Source of the DNA: an uncultured delta proteobacterium | GTDB taxonomy: Bacteria > Desulfobacterota > Binatia > Binatales > Binataceae | NCBI GenBank assembly: GCA_963842085.1 | Contig: CAWJET010000001.1 | Location: 160,001 to 224,000, forward strand | Reading direction: 5' to 3' | DNA: 64,000 nucleotides | Program-made: the position numbers and the translations under genes | The notes under the pieces: generated by a model | What the model was told of the DNA's origin: nothing | The model's input: only the letters and a program-made list of their open reading frames with translations | The model's database searches: none | In this document: positions 24,786-31,751 of the stretch, in pieces | How positions within the stretch are numbered: position 1 is the stretch's first letter | Layout: each line of letters begins with the position of its first letter

Positions 24786-25904
24786 TTAGCGATCGATCTC
24801 CGGCGCGATCACGTCGAGGCTCGCGATCAACGTAACCAGGTCCGCGATCATCAAGCCCGCGCTGAGTTTCTGAATGATGCCCATTGCGGCGAACGATCCC
24901 GTGCGGACGTGCACCCGCCATGGATAGCCGGTGCCGTCGCTCACGACGTACCATCCCATGTCGCCGCGTCCGCTCTCGAGCCGAATCTGGCATTCGCCTG
25001 CGGGCGGCTTGAAATTGCGCGCCACTTTCGCGAGCACCGGCCCAGCGGGAATCTTCTGCAGCGCCTGTCGCAGTATCTTCGACGATTCCGCCATCTCGCG
25101 AATCCGCACCACGTAGCGATCCATCGAGTCGCCAAGCTTGCCCCAATGGCCGTCGCCAACCGGCACGTCGAACTCGAACTCGGGATACACCGAATACGGG
25201 ATGTCCTTGCGGATGTCCCACTTGATTCCGCACGCGCGCAGGTTGGGCCCGACCAGGTTGTAATTGATCGCTTCCGCGGGCGTGATCACGCCGACGTTCG
25301 CCAGCCGCTCGACGTAGATTTTGTTCCACGAGATGAGCGCGTTGTATTCCTCGAGGATCGGATCGAAATGGTCGAGGTACGCGAGCGCCTTCTCGCGCCA
25401 TCCCGGCGGCAGATCCCACGCCACGCCGCCGATTCGCATGTAGTTGAACGTGAGCCGCGCGCCGCACAGCTCCTCGATCAAATCGTTGATCATCTCGCGC
25501 TCGCGAATCGCATGCGTGAACGGCGTCACCGCGCCGATATCCATCGCCATCGCGCCGACCGACAGCAGATGCGACGCGATTCGATTAAACTCCGCCGCGA
25601 TCACCCTGCAGTACTCGCCACGATGCGGCACTTCGATTCCCGCGAGCTTTTCGCAGGCCATGCCCCAGCCCTGGTTGGTGAACATCGCACACACGTAATC
25701 GACGCGATCGGTGTATGGCATGAAGCCGTGGTAGCCGACCTTCTCCGCGATCTTCTCGATCGAGCGATGCAGGTAGCCGACGTCCGGGATCGCCTCACGC
25801 ATCACCTCGCCGTCGGCCCGCACGATAAACCGCAGCACCCCGTGCGTCGACGGATGCTGCGGGCCCATGTTGAGCGTCATTTCTTCGGTGTGCAGCGTGC
25901 TCAT
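24786..25904 (-). CDS. nuoD: NADH-quinone oxidoreductase subunit D
   Basis: [23 protein letters not shown] and C-terminal EIDR. No NiFe-binding CxxC pairs. Confidence 0.95.
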
Positions 25905-26410
25905 TTCTTTTTCGTGTCGAGCCGGATTATCGGGCTCTCTCTAACTGTTGAGATTCCGTGGTATTCGGCCGGCTCGACAAAATCCTTGCGCAGCGGATGA
26001 CCGATCCAGTCCTCCGGCATCAGGATTCGCCGCATGTCGCTATGCCCCTCGAAGTTCACGCCAAGCAGGTCGAAAACTTCACGCTCCATCCAGTTCGCCG
26101 ACTTCCACACGCCCTCGAGCGTCGCCACGCTGGGGTTCTCGCGCGGCAGCTTAACCTTCAACACCGCACCGTGCCGATGCTTGTACGAGAACAGGTGATA
26201 GACCACCTCGACGCGATCCTTGTAGTCGACGCCGCTCTCGTTGGACAGGCAGTCCATCGCCAGCTCGGGATCCTCGTTCATGAATTTCCCGATCTCGACG
26301 ATCGCCTTCGGATCAATCACCGCAACCGGATCCGGCTTCTTTTCGGAGATTTCCAGAATTCGATCACCGAACTGGTTTTTCACCCGCTCGAGTATTTGCA
26401 GCGACTCCAT
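25901..26410 (-). CDS. nuoC: NADH-quinone oxidoreductase subunit C
   Basis: [13 protein letters not shown] and GHPLRKDF. Confidence 0.95.
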
Positions 26411-26414
26411 CTAC

Positions 26415-26927
26415 TCAGGCAGCCGCGACCTGCTTGCCATTGCCATTGGGCGAGCGCACCAGCCAGCGCTCGGTCATTATCTTCTCCTGCAATTTGAGCA
26501 GGCCTTCGGTCAGCGCCTCGGGACGCGGCGGGCAGCCGGGCACGTACACATCGACCGGCAGGATCTTGTCGACGCCGTCGCAAACCGAGTAGGCGAGCTG
26601 GAACAGTCCGCCGCAGCTCGCGCACGAACCCATCGAGATGACGTATCTCGGGTCGGGCATCTGATCGTAGAGCAGCCGCGTCCTGAGCGCCATTTTCAGC
26701 GTCAGCGTGCCCGCGACGATCATCAGGTCCGACTGGCGCGCCGACGCGCGCGGCGTCGCGCCGAAACGATCGATGTCCGCACGCGGGCCGCCGGTATGCA
26801 TCAGCTCGATCGCGCAGCAAGCCAGGCCGAACAGCATGTACCAGATGCTCGATTTGCGCATCCAGTTCAGCAGTTCGTCTGTCTTGGTGGTCAAAACGTA
26901 ATCGGGAAGCGTGTTCAACAAGGGCAT
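26415..26927 (-). CDS. nuoB: NADH-quinone oxidoreductase subunit B
   Basis: [14 protein letters not shown] and [10 protein letters not shown]. Confidence 0.95.
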
Positions 26928-26937
26928 AAGACCTACC

Positions 26938-27330
26938 TCAATCTTCGACCGGTACCTTCTTGATCCATTCCAGGTCGTGCTTGACCCAGACGTAAACCAG
27001 GCCGACGAACAGGATTAGCAGGAACAGCAAAATTTCGCTGAGCGCGTAAAGGCCGTGTCCCGAGCGCACCCAGTGCAGGTAAACGGCGGCTATCGGATAA
27101 ACGAACGCGACTTCGACCTCGAACACCACGAAAATCAGCGCGATCAGGTAGAAGCGGACGTTGAAATTGATCCACGCGCGGCCGGTCGGCGGCTCGCCGC
27201 ATTCGTAGGGAATCAGCTTTCGATCGTACGGATTTTGCGGCGCCAGTAGCTTCTGCAGCCCGAACATCAGCGCCACGAAACCGACCCCGATGATGGTAAG
27301 CGCCAGCGGCACGCCGAAGTTGAGGTACAT
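26938..27330 (-). CDS. nuoA: NADH-quinone oxidoreductase subunit A
   Basis: PYECGE and [14 protein letters not shown]. Confidence 0.93.
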
Positions 27331-27344
27331 TGGATGTTACCGAG

Positions 27345-27430
27345 TCCTCATTAATTGGACTGGACTAAGCTGTCAAGAAGGATCGCTTCACCTGTGATTG
27401 ATTTTGCTTAAGTAATTCTTAATTCAAACC
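27345..27430 (-). promoter_or_regulatory. Probable nuo promoter region
   Basis: Minus-strand TTGACA (27376-27371), AT-rich upstream tract and a weak -10-like ATTAAT/TAATGA. Confidence 0.4.
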
Positions 27431-27485
27431 TGCGCGCTGCGCTACGGAGACTGACTATTTCGGCGACGCAAGCGCAGCGATTGCG

Positions 27486-28028
27486 TTACCTTCGAGTCTC
27501 GCTGCTGCTGTGCATACCTACGGCGGTGTCCAGGCGTCTACGGATTTCGCGAACCATGTTCTCATCAAGCCACGCGCCGTGGTCCTTCGGACAGGCCATC
27601 CCGGCCAGCCCCACTGCGCCCGGCGAGATCGCCGCTCTGGCGGCAAGCCTGGCACCGCAATCGGGACAGTCGATCTCTTTGCGATATTCGTGACGCAGCT
27701 CTCCAACGGTCTCTGGGATTTTACCGAAAGCCTTTTCGTCCGGGGAACCGTGGTGAAGGGCCGCCGCATTCTCCAAGCGCTCGCGAATCTGCTCGAGCGC
27801 CTCCTTGTCAGCCCACGCGCCGTGATGCTCTGGACAAGCCAATCCTCCCACGCCGATTGGCACCCTGGCATCGAGTTTGGAACCGCAATGCGGGCATTTG
27901 ACTCCCTTGGCGTCCTTCAGGCGCAGCCTTTCGATTATTTCTGCATCGTGCTGTCGTGCCCACTGATTCTCGCGGCCCATCTCAGCGTTGTGGAGCGTGT
28001 CGCCGAGACGGTCTTTTTCGTCGCCCAT
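27486..28028 (-). CDS. Zinc-ribbon (zf-TFIIB-like) protein with two ribbons and a charged N-terminal helix
   Basis: CPHC...CPEHHGAW and CPDC...CPKDHGAW. N-terminus is paralogous to 28068-28364. Confidence 0.75.
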   Translation of the reverse strand: MGDEKDRLGDTLHNAEMGRENQWARQHDAEIIERLRLKDAKGVKCPHCGSKLDARVPIGVGGLACPEHHGAWADKEALEQIRERLENAAALHHGSPDEKAFGKIPETVGELRHEYRKEIDCPDCGARLAARAAISPGAVGLAGMACPKDHGAWLDENMVREIRRRLDTAVGMHSSSETRR

Positions 28029-28067
28029 ATTTCGCCCTCCAGGATGAAGTCTACCGGCGTTGATTGG

Positions 28068-28364
28068 TCATCGCACACCGGTCCGGTGGATCGGGCCGCC
28101 AGGCATTTTTTTTTGCTCCTTCAGCACCGCCTTCAACGTCGCCGCGTCGAGCCACGCGCCATGTCCGGCCGGGCACGCATGCATCTGCACGCCGGCCTCG
28201 GTTCTCGCTACCAGTAATTCCTTGCAATGCGGACACGACGTCTGGCTCACGCGTTTGCGCATCTTCTCCAGCAGCTCAACGTCGCGCTGTCGCGCCCACT
28301 GATCTTCGCGCGCCTTCTCGACGTCGTGGAGCTTGCTGCCCAACCGGTCTTTCTCATCCGCCAT
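28068..28364 (-). CDS. Zinc-ribbon (zf-TFIIB-like) protein with a charged N-terminal helix
   Basis: EKAREDQWARQRDVELL followed by CPHC...CPAGHGAWLD. Confidence 0.78.
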   Translation of the reverse strand: MADEKDRLGSKLHDVEKAREDQWARQRDVELLEKMRKRVSQTSCPHCKELLVARTEAGVQMHACPAGHGAWLDAATLKAVLKEQKKMPGGPIHRTGVR

Positions 28365-28373
28365 AGTCGCGCC

Positions 28374-28712
28374 TCAAGTCATCTCCTTGATCAGCTTGCC
28401 GCTGCGCGCTTTCTCGACCGTCGCCTCGAATTTCGACCCGAGATCGACGCCCATCTCCTTGGCCCGCTTCTTCGCCCAAAGTCCGACGTTGCGCGAATCG
28501 CGATAGAACGAATCGTCGCGCGGTTTGGACGCGTCGAAACTCGCAAGCCGCGAGGCCTCGCTCTCGACCACCGCGAACGACGACATTACGCGCCGCAGCC
28601 GCGCCGACCCGCATTCGGGACACTCGCGACGCTCGCGGCGTCGCGATGAACCCATCACCACGTGCGAGCTGACGAGCCCGCATCGCGAGCATTCGTACTC
28701 GAAAATCGGCAT
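28374..28712 (-). CDS. FmdB-family zinc-ribbon protein
   Basis: MPIFEYECSRCG...CPECGSARLRRVMSSF. Confidence 0.85.
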   Translation of the reverse strand: MPIFEYECSRCGLVSSHVVMGSSRRRERRECPECGSARLRRVMSSFAVVESEASRLASFDASKPRDDSFYRDSRNVGLWAKKRAKEMGVDLGSKFEATVEKARSGKLIKEMT

Positions 28713-28756
28713 CGGATCTAAAGAATATCCTGACGGGAGACCGCCCGCAAATCAGC

Positions 28757-29041
28757 TTAATGGTGGGCGGTTTCAGCAGGATTTTCGTCAGCGTCGACCT
28801 CCGGCGGCGACACGGGACGCCAGCTCTCGCGCACGTCGAGCACGGGACCCGCCAACGGGTTGCCGACGAGTAGCAGAAGTCCGACCGCACCGACCGCCAC
28901 CCCGCATCCAAGCCACCAAATCGAGCGGTATTCGACGCCAAGCGCAAGCATCGCAAGCGCCCACATAGGGATGATGAGCGAGACGACGAAGCGCATCAGC
29001 GCACTCATCGCATGCTCAGCCTGTTCAGCGCGGTCGGCCAT
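28757..29041 (-). CDS. Small membrane protein
   Basis: Two hydrophobic segments, GAGG upstream of the ATG, in line with its neighbours. Confidence 0.6.
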   Translation of the reverse strand: MADRAEQAEHAMSALMRFVVSLIIPMWALAMLALGVEYRSIWWLGCGVAVGAVGLLLLVGNPLAGPVLDVRESWRPVSPPEVDADENPAETAHH

Positions 29042-29049
29042 CGATTCCT

Positions 29050-30741
29050 CTATTTAGCGGCTGCGGGCGAAATTTCAAATAGCGCCGGCGGCCCGCCGCC
29101 ACCGATCAAGTTGGACTTCGCAACGAGCTTGAGCCGCGAGCGATACTCGGGAGTCATAGCGTCCAGCTCGCGCGGCGTCGCAAGCAGATATCCGCACTTA
29201 GGATTTTTGAGATCGGGCACCGCGGCGCCATAGTAGTACGATAGCTCGTAGTTGATGCCACTCGGAATGCATAGCTGATTGCCTTTGACGTGGTCGGCAA
29301 CAATCGGAACGAAGCTCTTCAGGCTGCGTGCGTAAGCCAGTCCAGGTCGCAACCTCGTCGTCCATAGCAGGCTTTGGGAAAGACCGAGCAGGCCGAACGC
29401 CACGCCAACCAGGATCGCGCGCCGCCGCAGTACGCCGAATATCGCGACAGCGTCCAGTGCCAAGTAGCAGAGCGCGAACAGGGTCAATAAAGCGCCCATC
29501 GTTTGAAAAAAAACCGTGTAGTAGGCTTCGTCGCTCGATTGGAGTTTCATCTGCGTGGCGAAGCGCGGAAGGAAAAAAAGAAAAGCGAGAATGGCAACTG
29601 AGCTGAACGCAAACACCACGACGAGCGGGTCGCGTAACTTTGATGCGGCGCCGCGTACATCCAGCTTGAACACCGACGCGCAGAGGATCGCGATTCCCGG
29701 AAGCGCGGGCAAGATGTAATCGTCGCGCTTGACGCTGGCGATCGAGAAAAACAGCAACACCGCGAGCGACATGCTGATTTGGTAAACCACCGGGCGACGT
29801 TTCTCCGCAGCGATCTCGCCAGTGTAGAAGGCGAGCGCGGCCGGCAGTATCAGGAGCGTCATCGGGAATGCGCCGCCCAGAAGACGCGCAGCGATAAAAT
29901 AGAAGGGGCGGTGGCTCTCGCCTGTGCCGCCGAGTTTGGCCGGCATGAAGTGTCCGAAATTCTCGGCGAGGATGATCCTCAAGATTTTGTGCCCGCCGAC
30001 GATCGCCGCCGGTACGTACCAGACCGCGCCGATCGCGACCGCAATCGCGACGACCTGCCACGGCCATCGCTGACGGAGTAACGCCATTGGATTGCGGCGC
30101 TCGATCAGCAGGTAGATCAACGCGGCGAGCGCGCACAGCACCATCGCAATCGGGCCCTTGGTCAAAACCCCCAATCCGAGTATCACGCCCACGAATATTT
30201 TCCTGCGCGAAGAGGCAGGTGACGCCGTCGCGTCTTCGAGTAGCGGAAAGATCGCCGCGTACGCGGCGAACAGCAGAAACGTCAGCAGCATATCGGTCAG
30301 CGCTTCGGTCGCGCGCGACGCAAATCCGTACGTGCCGAGCATTAACAGAAACGCCAGCCATCCTTCGGATGCGCCGACGTTGGCAGCCGTCCACGCGAGC
30401 ACGCTCACCGCGAGCGCCGTGCCTGCCACCACAGACACTGCGCGCGCGCGAAGCTCGTCGACGGTGCCTCCGGTCGTCTCGGCGACGACCGCTGACAGCC
30501 AATAGAACAGCGGCGGTTTGCGATCTGTATAGCCGTACGCGTCATGCGGTATCAGCCAGTGACCGTCGCGCACGATGCTCTGAATCCACTCGGCCGATTG
30601 CGGCTCCGCGTCCTTCTGAAACGGCGCGCTGATTCCCTGCACGAGAACGACAAACGCGAACAACGAAGCGATCGCGAGCATCGCGGGTGGCAGCACGGCG
30701 CCCCCACTTTTCGGCGCGGAAGTGGGACGCTCGGGAGTCAC
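29050..30741 (-). CDS. ArnT/GT39-like polytopic glycosyltransferase
   Basis: KPPLFYW, LTKGPIA, PFYF and KRDDYILPALP. GTG start overlaps the upstream stop. Confidence 0.85.
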   Translation of the reverse strand: MTPERPTSAPKSGGAVLPPAMLAIASLFAFVVLVQGISAPFQKDAEPQSAEWIQSIVRDGHWLIPHDAYGYTDRKPPLFYWLSAVVAETTGGTVDELRARAVSVVAGTALAVSVLAWTAANVGASEGWLAFLLMLGTYGFASRATEALTDMLLTFLLFAAYAAIFPLLEDATASPASSRRKIFVGVILGLGVLTKGPIAMVLCALAALIYLLIERRNPMALLRQRWPWQVVAIAVAIGAVWYVPAAIVGGHKILRIILAENFGHFMPAKLGGTGESHRPFYFIAARLLGGAFPMTLLILPAALAFYTGEIAAEKRRPVVYQISMSLAVLLFFSIASVKRDDYILPALPGIAILCASVFKLDVRGAASKLRDPLVVVFAFSSVAILAFLFFLPRFATQMKLQSSDEAYYTVFFQTMGALLTLFALCYLALDAVAIFGVLRRRAILVGVAFGLLGLSQSLLWTTRLRPGLAYARSLKSFVPIVADHVKGNQLCIPSGINYELSYYYGAAVPDLKNPKCGYLLATPRELDAMTPEYRSRLKLVAKSNLIGGGGPPALFEISPAAAK

Positions 30742-31751
30742 GGATGGCGGGCCGTCGCGATCGGCTCGAGCCACAGAAGTTGCACTCCGCCGGCGGGATC
30801 GTACCGCGCCACCTGCATCGAGGCGGCGTTGTGCGCATAACCAATTCTGCCGCGCCGGTCGACGAGCACAATTCCGGCCTCGGCGCCCGTCGCGTCGATC
30901 ATTTCGGCAATCGCCTCGCGCGCGACGGCCCGGGGCGAGCCGTCGGCGAGCGCCAGTACCGCCTCGCGGCACAGCGCGGTCAGGATGATCGCCTCGCCGT
31001 GCCCGGTCGCCGAGGCTGCGCCGAATGCGTGCGCGAAAGTGCCGGCGCCAATCAGCGCGGAATCGCCGATGCGTCCAAACAGTTTGCCCGGCACGCCCCC
31101 GGTCGAGGTCGCGGCCGCGATCGCACCGTGCACATCGACGGCGACCGCGCCGACGGTGCCATGTCCCATCGTTGCGCGTGCAGCTGCTTCAGCTTCGAGC
31201 ATCCCGATCTGCTGCTTTCGCGCCCGCCATCGTTCGCGAGCACGCTCTGTAACCATTTCCTGGGGCCGCACGAGGCGGATGCCGACTCTGCGCGCGAAGC
31301 TTTCCGCGCCTGCGCCGGCCATCAGGATGTGCGGCGAATGTTCCATCACGGCGCGCGCGAGCATGATTGGATTTCGCACGCGGCTTACCACGGCAACCGC
31401 ACCGGCCGAGACGGTGTAGTCAGCTTCGTCAGAATGAGCGGAGTGGTCTGAGCGCTTGCCTCGTGAAAAATGCGGGACGGGCTCCGCCAACATCACGGAC
31501 GCATCCATTTCGACGTTGCCTTCGGAGTTGAGCAACGAGCCGTAGCCGGCGTTGAAGAACGGATGATCCTCGAGGGCCACGACCGTCGCGACCACTGCGT
31601 CGAGCGCGCTGCCGTTAGCGCGAAGAATGCCCGCGCCGAGGCGCACCGCAGCCATCATCGCGCGGCGCCGCTCAGGGCGTTCGGCGCCGGGCCCCGCGTT
31701 ACCGGCGCCGCCGTGCGCGACGAGCGCGGGACGATTGCGCGCGCGAGCCAT
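30738..31751 (-). CDS. iaaA: Isoaspartyl peptidase / L-asparaginase (Ntn hydrolase)
   Basis: HGGAG, FNAGYGS, EMDASVM, GTVGAVA, ATSTGG and GRIGDS. Confidence 0.88.
   Translation of the reverse strand: MARARNRPALVAHGGAGNAGPGAERPERRRAMMAAVRLGAGILRANGSALDAVVATVVALEDHPFFNAGYGSLLNSEGNVEMDASVMLAEPVPHFSRGKRSDHSAHSDEADYTVSAGAVAVVSRVRNPIMLARAVMEHSPHILMAGAGAESFARRVGIRLVRPQEMVTERARERWRARKQQIGMLEAEAAARATMGHGTVGAVAVDVHGAIAAATSTGGVPGKLFGRIGDSALIGAGTFAHAFGAASATGHGEAIILTALCREAVLALADGSPRAVAREAIAEMIDATGAEAGIVLVDRRGRIGYAHNAASMQVARYDPAGGVQLLWLEPIATARHP

Follow-up and report, generated by a model that had tools for sequence, protein, structure and literature searches.

An N-terminal helix resembling the ATP synthase inhibitor IF1 on zinc-ribbon proteins encoded beside nuoA in Binataceae

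Why would small bacterial zinc-ribbon proteins begin with a helix that reads like the F1-binding segment of the ATP synthase inhibitor IF1? The question is raised by a 64,000-nucleotide stretch of the genome of an uncultured delta proteobacterium of the family Binataceae (assembly GCA_963842085.1, contig CAWJET010000001.1, positions 160,001 to 224,000; hereafter the window), in which two paralogous genes, here called ZR1 and ZR2, immediately precede nuoA, the gene with which the complex I cluster opens. IF1 is treated as a mitochondrial protein in the section of PMC9317440 cited here. By sequence-profile comparison we find that the likeness of the ZR helix to IF1 is specific, in register and more than chance resemblance among charged helices, while staying below family thresholds. 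The helix is a portable module, and we tentatively read it as a peptide that may act on F1.

ZR1 and ZR2 are real, conserved genes and not chance open reading frames (ORFs): we judge them genuine because a search with ZR1 gave 190 candidates, of which 186, mostly 85–86 amino acids long, are homologous at E ≤ 1e-3, and because the two paralogs are 45–49% identical. As the original prediction had described from the letters of the window, both proteins start with M(G/A)DEKDRLG (residues 1–9), carry the further strings it quoted at residues 16–36, and continue into one (ZR1) or two (ZR2) CPxC...CPxxHGAW ribbons. Shine–Dalgarno strings (GGAG/GAGG) stand before both genes. The long ORFs that run antisense to ZR1 and ZR2 (such as 27510–28217, plus strand) were set aside as artefacts of GC-rich frames, the conserved products being those of the minus strand. 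The two proteins and their parts are:

28068..28364, minus strand: ZR1, 98 amino acids; helix module at the N-terminus, then a single PF13453 zinc ribbon and a short helix at the C-terminus
28245..28364, minus strand: ZR1 residues 1–40, IF1-like helix module, from conservation and a sub-cut-off IATP match
28152..28235, minus strand: ZR1 zinc ribbon, C44..W71, reading C44-P-H-C47 ... C64-P-A-G-H68-G-A-W71, with His at the fourth ligand position
27486..28028, minus strand: ZR2, 180 amino acids; paralog of ZR1 with the helix module and two ribbons
27909..28028, minus strand: ZR2 residues 1–40, helix module, 52% identical to that of ZR1
27813..27896, minus strand: ZR2 ribbon 1, C45..W72, with C45, P46, C48, C65, P66, G70, A71 and W72 invariant in 17 sequences
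27570..27668, minus strand: ZR2 ribbon 2, C121..W153, from the ORF translation and the same 17-sequence alignment, which consists mostly of two-ribbon relatives

In both proteins the N-terminal helix is better conserved than the ribbon. AlphaFold2 models place a helix at residues 3–40 of both proteins, followed in ZR1 (predicted local distance difference test, pLDDT, 69) by strands at 52–63 and a helix at 74–85, and in ZR2 (pLDDT 60.8) by a ribbon, a helix at 75–94, a low-confidence linker, the second ribbon and a helix at 156–177. In a 55-sequence ZR1 alignment 19 positions are invariant, of which 13 fall within the first 36 residues (R7, G9, K11, D14, E16, A18, E20, Q22, W23, A24, R25, D28 and R36), and this conservation covers all faces of the helix instead of following a heptad stripe. 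A profile of residues 1–42 built only from Binataceae (A2; 24 sequences from the window and relative loci, 42 positions) matches 191 proteins at E ≤ 1e-3, 49 of them at E ≤ 1e-10, among 1.84 billion representatives. When the best 150 of these matches are compared with Pfam at E ≤ 0.01, 34 match PF13453, 28 IATP (PF04568, the IF1 family) and 17 Usp; apart from the USP and zinc-ribbon families, no family but IATP recurs, and many of the remaining matches are short or frameshifted metagenome fragments. Among the longer module proteins listed (152–2000 amino acids), a count by hand finds the USP family PF00582 in 98 of 120; nine USP fusions were confirmed directly, and some module proteins consist of the helix and a low-complexity tail alone. 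As judged from these arrangements, the helix is a separate portable module that stands before PF13453 ribbons, before USP domains or by itself. An ESM Atlas search with the whole protein returned only its own Binatota PF13453 clusters.

Several single proteins stand out in this collection. P0180 and P0221, about 110–120 amino acids long and with no Pfam match, each have the module core (R-E-[ED]-x-W-F-x-x-x-D-x-E-L-I) twice, as do the fungal IATP proteins P0237 and P0271. In three single representatives the module is joined to a ribosomal S7 part (P0244), to a USP part with a molybdopterin-oxidoreductase Fe4S4 domain (P0249) or to a TRAM domain (P0261); these joins may be chimeras produced by assembly or by frameshifts, and not true fusions.

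The likeness to IF1 emerges from profile comparisons. The Binataceae-only profile A2 retrieves the fungal protein P0237 with E = 1.5e-6, and P0237, named by one source as a Gonapodya protein, passes the Pfam IATP cut-off (37.5 bits against 25). To a broader module profile (A4), made from 35 earlier matches chosen by hand, mostly short proteins and with a possible bias, P0237 aligns in hhalign with probability 81.9 and E = 1.1e-5; a homolog search with P0237 gave only two proteins, too few to build a proper IF1 alignment for profile–profile comparison. Used as a hidden Markov model, A4 gives 23.4 and 24.6 bits on two fungal IATP proteins, scores that none of 2000 shuffles of each sequence reaches (maxima 4.0 and 8.0); composition therefore does not explain the IF1 match. 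Against the PDB at E ≤ 10, A4 has 20 matches, comprising 14 IF1 chains, one chain labelled 'PSK', two chains of plant complex I subunit P2 and three unrelated chains. Bovine IF1 is matched at E = 0.017 (2v7q_J), the Euglena protein at 0.042 (6tdu) and yeast IF1 at 0.1 (3zia_J). The best match, at E = 0.0011, is 'PSK' (7dtl_A), which we take to be an insect IF1-family peptide; altogether 17 of the 20 are IF1 chains or likely IF1-like proteins.

The pattern common to the module and IF1 is E-x-A-x-E-[DE]-x-[YW]-[FA]-x-x-R-x-x-E-x-L-x-x-[LM]-[RK], corresponding to bovine residues 26–46, and the register is constant in every comparison: IF1 residue n is ZR1 residue n−10, with ZR1 15–37 equivalent to bovine 25–47. 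In the portion of Bason et al. 2011 (PMC3041923) used here, binding energy of bovine IF1 is assigned to F22, A28, E30, Y33, F34, Q41, L42 and L45, E30 is joined by a salt bridge to beta-DP R408, and the substitution Y33W improves binding. The ZR1 equivalents are L12, A18, E20, W23, A24, L31, L32 and M35. Five of the eight are kept or conservative: A28 is A18, the salt-bridge residue E30 is E20, Y33 is W23, L42 is L32 and L45 is M35. The charged IF1 residues E26, E31, R35, R37 and E40 are likewise kept, as E16, D21, R25, R27 and E30. Of 116 module relatives, 83 have YF as the aromatic pair and 27 have WA, which makes the WA form of Binataceae a minority. On the side of the putative target, the beta subunit of the host reads V-S-R-A-R after an EELSADD string, a stretch that is widely conserved anyway and presumably corresponds to the bovine V404/S405/R408 pocket.

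IF1 and the bacterial zeta subunit are both laid out with an inhibitory helix at the N-terminus and a regulatory domain behind it. The ZR proteins share with IF1 the order of helix first and putative regulatory part after, and differ from it in several ways: IF1 is eukaryotic and imported into mitochondria, whereas the ZR proteins are bacterial, have the module from residue 1 and lack a presequence; they add the strongly conserved M-x-DEKDR[LF]G start; and a zinc ribbon or USP domain replaces the His-rich coiled coil of IF1. The fusions with USP share the N-terminal module, mostly with the IF1-like YF pair, and carry a nucleotide-binding USP domain where ZR1 has its ribbon. From these comparisons we tentatively favour, without regarding it as probable, the reading that the module is a peptide which, like IF1, docks on F1 or inhibits it, and that the attached zinc-ribbon or USP domain is regulatory. 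In this reading ZR1 and ZR2 are small cytoplasmic proteins with a module of ~40 residues, predicted to form one long exposed helix, and one or two zinc ribbons. The module peptide would fold on binding and wedge into a catalytic alpha/beta interface of F1, where it would block ATP hydrolysis as the helix of IF1 does, and a handle, dimeriser or sensor, formed here by the ribbon and in relatives by the USP domain, would control when the helix is free. That the proteins respond to metal or redox state, as had been suggested, is speculation drawn from the Cys3-His/Asp/Glu site of the ribbon.

The original prediction had named the zeta family beside IF1 as one to compare, and no likeness to zeta was found: no zeta chain is among the PDB matches at E ≤ 10 of A4 or of a full-length Binataceae-only profile (A1), and none is among the Pfam matches listed. 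According to PMC9317440, zeta (DUF1476), a subunit of alpha-proteobacterial ATP synthase, begins with an inhibitory helix, after which comes a globular domain that senses nucleotides, and its gene lies outside the atp operons. Its likeness to the ZR proteins is one of concept, in other taxa and with no profile match.

Several results weigh against F1 as the target, in addition to the possible bias of A4. Every bacterial match between module and IF1, on Pfam IATP or on PDB chains, lies below the family cut-off or is individually non-significant: ZR1 scores 14.6 bits on IATP (E = 0.046, cut-off 25), 18 of 24 family members have an IATP match at E ≤ 10, all under the cut-off (best E = 0.0038), and the best bacterial protein among 40 module proteins scanned singly reaches 22.7 bits. 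Profile A1 finds no IF1 chain in the PDB at E ≤ 10, its only significant match being the ribbon of 8yoz, and an ESM Atlas search with residues 1–42 gives no usable match. Within the helix, the remaining three binding residues comprise one hydrophobic swap and two changes (F22 is L12, F34 is A24, Q41 is L31), IF1 R25 is V15, and between FG motif and aromatic residue the module has a distance 4 residues greater than that in IF1. The match of A4 to plant complex I P2 means that the motif need not imply F1 binding. The atp clusters of the window genome are far from the window (C1, 2223220–2229381, an ordinary F1Fo operon; C2, 1527472–1534069), and the host epsilon subunit has its full length (140 amino acids), so the organism already possesses an inhibitor of the classical kind. 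Only 2 of the 160 loci of relatives described below have atp genes nearby (L119 and L121), in convergent orientation and probably in one lineage. Adjacency to nuoA is never seen without the neighbouring gene FmdB, and of the 94 loci that show both flanks 18 have lost it. The predicted similarity to IF1 is consistent and in register and falls short of family strength (25 bits for PF04568). The idea of an ATP synthase inhibitor or respiratory regulator is partly supported: IF1 profile likeness is found, zeta likeness is not, and bioenergetic linkage is slight.

Two observations on the atp genes themselves may be recorded here. In C2 the beta gene apparently comes first and alpha and gamma last, only these three being identified and their order taken from ORF sizes, an arrangement that we assume to be of the N-ATPase type. 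In metagenome contigs L119 (8001–15926) and L121 (2293–4938) an N-ATPase-type operon and a homolog of ZR1 (59% identical) are arranged tail to tail, and in L119 the far end of this operon has a USP-like gene. Module–USP fusions were looked for in the window genome and none was found.

What else could the helix be doing? The genes around ZR1 and ZR2 bear on this question, and they are all on the minus strand, transcribed in the order glycosyltransferase, 94-amino-acid membrane protein, FmdB, ZR1, ZR2, nuoA, nuoB, nuoC and nuoD:

29050..30972, minus strand: PMT_2-type (ArnT-like) glycosyltransferase, PF13231 at 43.7 bits; syntenic, start codon uncertain
28757..29041, minus strand: predicted membrane protein of 94 amino acids, syntenic in relatives, no family at threshold
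28374..28712, minus strand: FmdB-family zinc-ribbon gene, PF09723 and TIGR02605 above their cut-offs
27348..27376, minus strand: promoter-like element before nuoA (TTGACA, 17 nucleotides, TAATGA), read from the sequence
26938..27330, minus strand: nuoA, first gene of the complex I cluster, PF00507 at 109 bits
26415–26927, minus strand: nuoB, the ORF after nuoA
25901–26410, minus strand: nuoC, the ORF after nuoB
24786–25904, minus strand: nuoD, the ORF after nuoC

An FmdB zinc-ribbon gene ahead of the paralogs, with nuo downstream in a single orientation, had been predicted, and family scores bear this out: FmdB passes both its cut-offs (PF09723, 44.2 bits against 34.4; TIGR02605, 46.8 against 31.3) and the PF00507 score of nuoA agrees. 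FmdB and ZR1 are 9 bp apart (28365–28373) and the FmdB stop codon falls inside the ribosome-binding GAGG string of ZR1 (GGAGATGACTTGAGG, minus strand), an overlap that suggests translational coupling of the two genes; ZR2 and nuoA are separated by 155 bp. PADLOC defence models match none of the 4 proteins searched, and Rfam has no match at E ≤ 0.1 over 26000–30000. To survey gene order we used 160 loci, made up of 80 of 104 confirmed genome matches and 80 of 447 confirmed metagenome matches, all from the closest relatives and not independent of one another; records of relatives carry the label Candidatus Binatus or Binataceae. Of the 132 loci that extend far enough upstream, 116 have FmdB no more than 300 bp before ZR1, and it is the most constant neighbour. 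Of the 98 loci with at least 3.5 kb of downstream sequence, 70 have nuoA no further than 1 kb downstream, 9 have it at 1–3 kb and 19 lack it. Where both flanks could be read (94 loci), FmdB and nuo are both present in 76, FmdB alone in 11, nuo alone in 0 and neither in 7.

The strongest competitor is that the likeness to IF1 reflects convergence on a common charged amphipathic helix, in which case the module would be an oligomerisation element or dock elsewhere (on the ribosome, RNA polymerase or a stress partner), the Binataceae forms acting with the FmdB protein in regulation. The constancy of FmdB just described favours this account, as do a second arrangement with an FmdB-like gene, placed after the ribbon gene (L123, L124, L127 and L145), the USP fusions, which fit a general stress role, the sub-threshold IF1 matches and the unrelated gene contexts of the wider family. 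Against it, the shuffles rule out mere composition, the PDB matches are almost only of IF1 type and not general coiled coils, conservation on all faces is unlike a simple coiled coil, and no tool points to another partner. On this balance we regard it as somewhat unlikely.

The breadth of the family gives some of these contexts. The module occurs in 12 of 201 genomes of the phylum, namely all 6 of the window's class and 6 of the 195 others, and these last 6 have a shorter form that retains A-K-E-D-Q-Y-F and a four-Cys ribbon. In 8 genomes outside the Binataceae synteny group, no nuo or atp family was found among 61 crudely called neighbouring ORFs, and tblastn with the nuo and atp proteins of the window and its genome found none near their ribbon genes. 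In two genomes of one family (L189:5967–8049 and L190:5913–8056) the short form, with no DEKDR start and with a four-Cys ribbon, lies between oligopeptide ABC ATPase and LOG/lysine-decarboxylase-like genes. The window genome itself has a third paralog, a two-ribbon protein of 178 amino acids (G000:C1 about 3220570–3221101; locus L002:1231–1767, minus strand), whose gene adjoins one that by eye resembles the glycogen-debranching type and one for a large repeat protein; FmdB, nuo and atp genes are all missing from its surroundings.

A second alternative takes the position beside nuoA at face value: the ZR proteins would bind or regulate complex I, the helix serving as an accessory subunit or assembly factor like the IF1-like plant subunit P2. 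Besides the direct adjacency in 70 of 98 loci, and proximity in 9 more, A4 weakly matches two P2 chains (6x89_P2, E = 0.037; 7a23_n, 0.19). P2 (At2g27730) is listed as a membrane-arm subunit in the part of PMC3671202 cited here; it is a respiratory-chain protein, and a structural subunit of eukaryotes. RNA-library contigs of relatives span FmdB and ZR1 in three runs, and one contig (run X3, record 22) extends to the 5' end of nuoA. These metatranscriptome runs contain 5–7% of the sampled words and their contigs, mostly from relatives, cannot show transcript ends, levels or single transcripts; a contig over two genes is no proof of one transcript, and RNA libraries can hold DNA. Adjacency to nuo is moreover found only in loci of Binataceae-type synteny and is lost in G174, a genome of the same family; it never occurs without FmdB; and paralogs elsewhere and the wider family have no nuo neighbours.

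Downstream of the ZR genes, nuoA also has its own promoter-like element, and in an alignment of 12 Binataceae intergenic regions 10 keep its TTGACAG. From this conserved TTGACA, 17-nucleotide spacer and TAATGA, nuo probably has its own promoter, although a consensus promoter scan did not report the element, the last base of the second hexamer not being T. About 30 nucleotides upstream of it lies a short inverted repeat (TTAAG, 5 nucleotides, CTTAA, at ~27405–27425, minus strand). Both are kept across divergent Binataceae and may form a regulator site for the nuo operon. With the promoter-like element and the gene-order counts set against it, a role in complex I is improbable. The link to nuo is confined to part of one family, and on the favoured reading the position of the ZR genes beside nuoA is inherited synteny and not part of the mechanism. 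The conserved linkage to bioenergetic genes that the original prediction had asked for is largely not found, atp genes being near in so few loci and nuoA being tied to the FmdB synteny, and gene order makes a weak case for a bioenergetic role.

The ribbon that follows the helix belongs to a family already known and annotated. ZR1 passes PF13453 (Zn_ribbon_TFIIB) with 29.7 bits against a cut-off of 22, while ZR2, its paralog, stays under it with 15.8. The usual four-Cys arrangement of PF13453 (CPxC ... CPxC, then G-x-W) is incomplete in ZR1, which keeps C44, C47 and C64 and lacks the fourth Cys. Position 68 is His in 43, Asp in 10 and Glu in 2 of the 55 family members, and position 67 is Gly in 44, Asp in 9 and Asn in 2; canonical relatives, such as the ribbon protein in L185, retain all four Cys. 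By its sequence the ribbon is a PF13453-type variant with a non-Cys fourth ligand (His, Asp or Glu). Its closest structural counterpart is ZifS of Thermus thermophilus (TTHA0897, PDB 8yoz_A), which the ZR family profile matches with E = 9.3e-7 and which heads the Foldseek ranking of the ZR1 model (root-mean-square deviation 1.5 over 45 columns), a search in which, with a model of this confidence, no match reaches E ≤ 0.001. In the aligned stretch ZifS has its ribbon at residue 5 and no N-terminal module, and it has Cys where ZR1 has Gly67-His68. Literature searches found no paper on the function of ZifS.

That the ZR proteins are zinc-finger nucleic-acid-binding regulators, possibly controlling the nuo promoter, is very improbable: membership of ZR1 in PF13453, the database names 'transcription factor zinc-finger' and 'Zn-finger nucleic acid-binding protein', weak Foldseek matches to RNA polymerase subunit ribbons and the conserved inverted repeat upstream of the nuo promoter-like element point that way, but the names are automatic labels, the Foldseek matches all have E > 0.01 with a model of pLDDT 69, the helix is acid-rich and roughly balanced by basic residues, unlike a DNA-binding helix, and no helix-turn-helix or other DNA-binding family matches.

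A wider proposal builds on an IF1-like peptide for F1. IF1-type inhibitors would be widespread in bacteria as a portable helix joined to a sensor domain, either a labile Cys3-His/Asp ribbon or a nucleotide-binding USP domain, and mitochondrial IF1 would have descended from such a bacterial module and would not be an invention of eukaryotes; we consider this unlikely on the present sequence comparisons. In the literature that we searched, no paper describes IF1-like ribbon or USP proteins from bacteria. Should the module prove to inhibit F1, it would be a new bacterial regulator of ATP hydrolysis, would tie control of ATP synthase to zinc, redox or nucleotide sensing, and would offer a concrete, testable candidate for the origin of IF1. 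If it does not, the helix would still be a conserved, portable N-terminal element common to zinc-ribbon and USP proteins.

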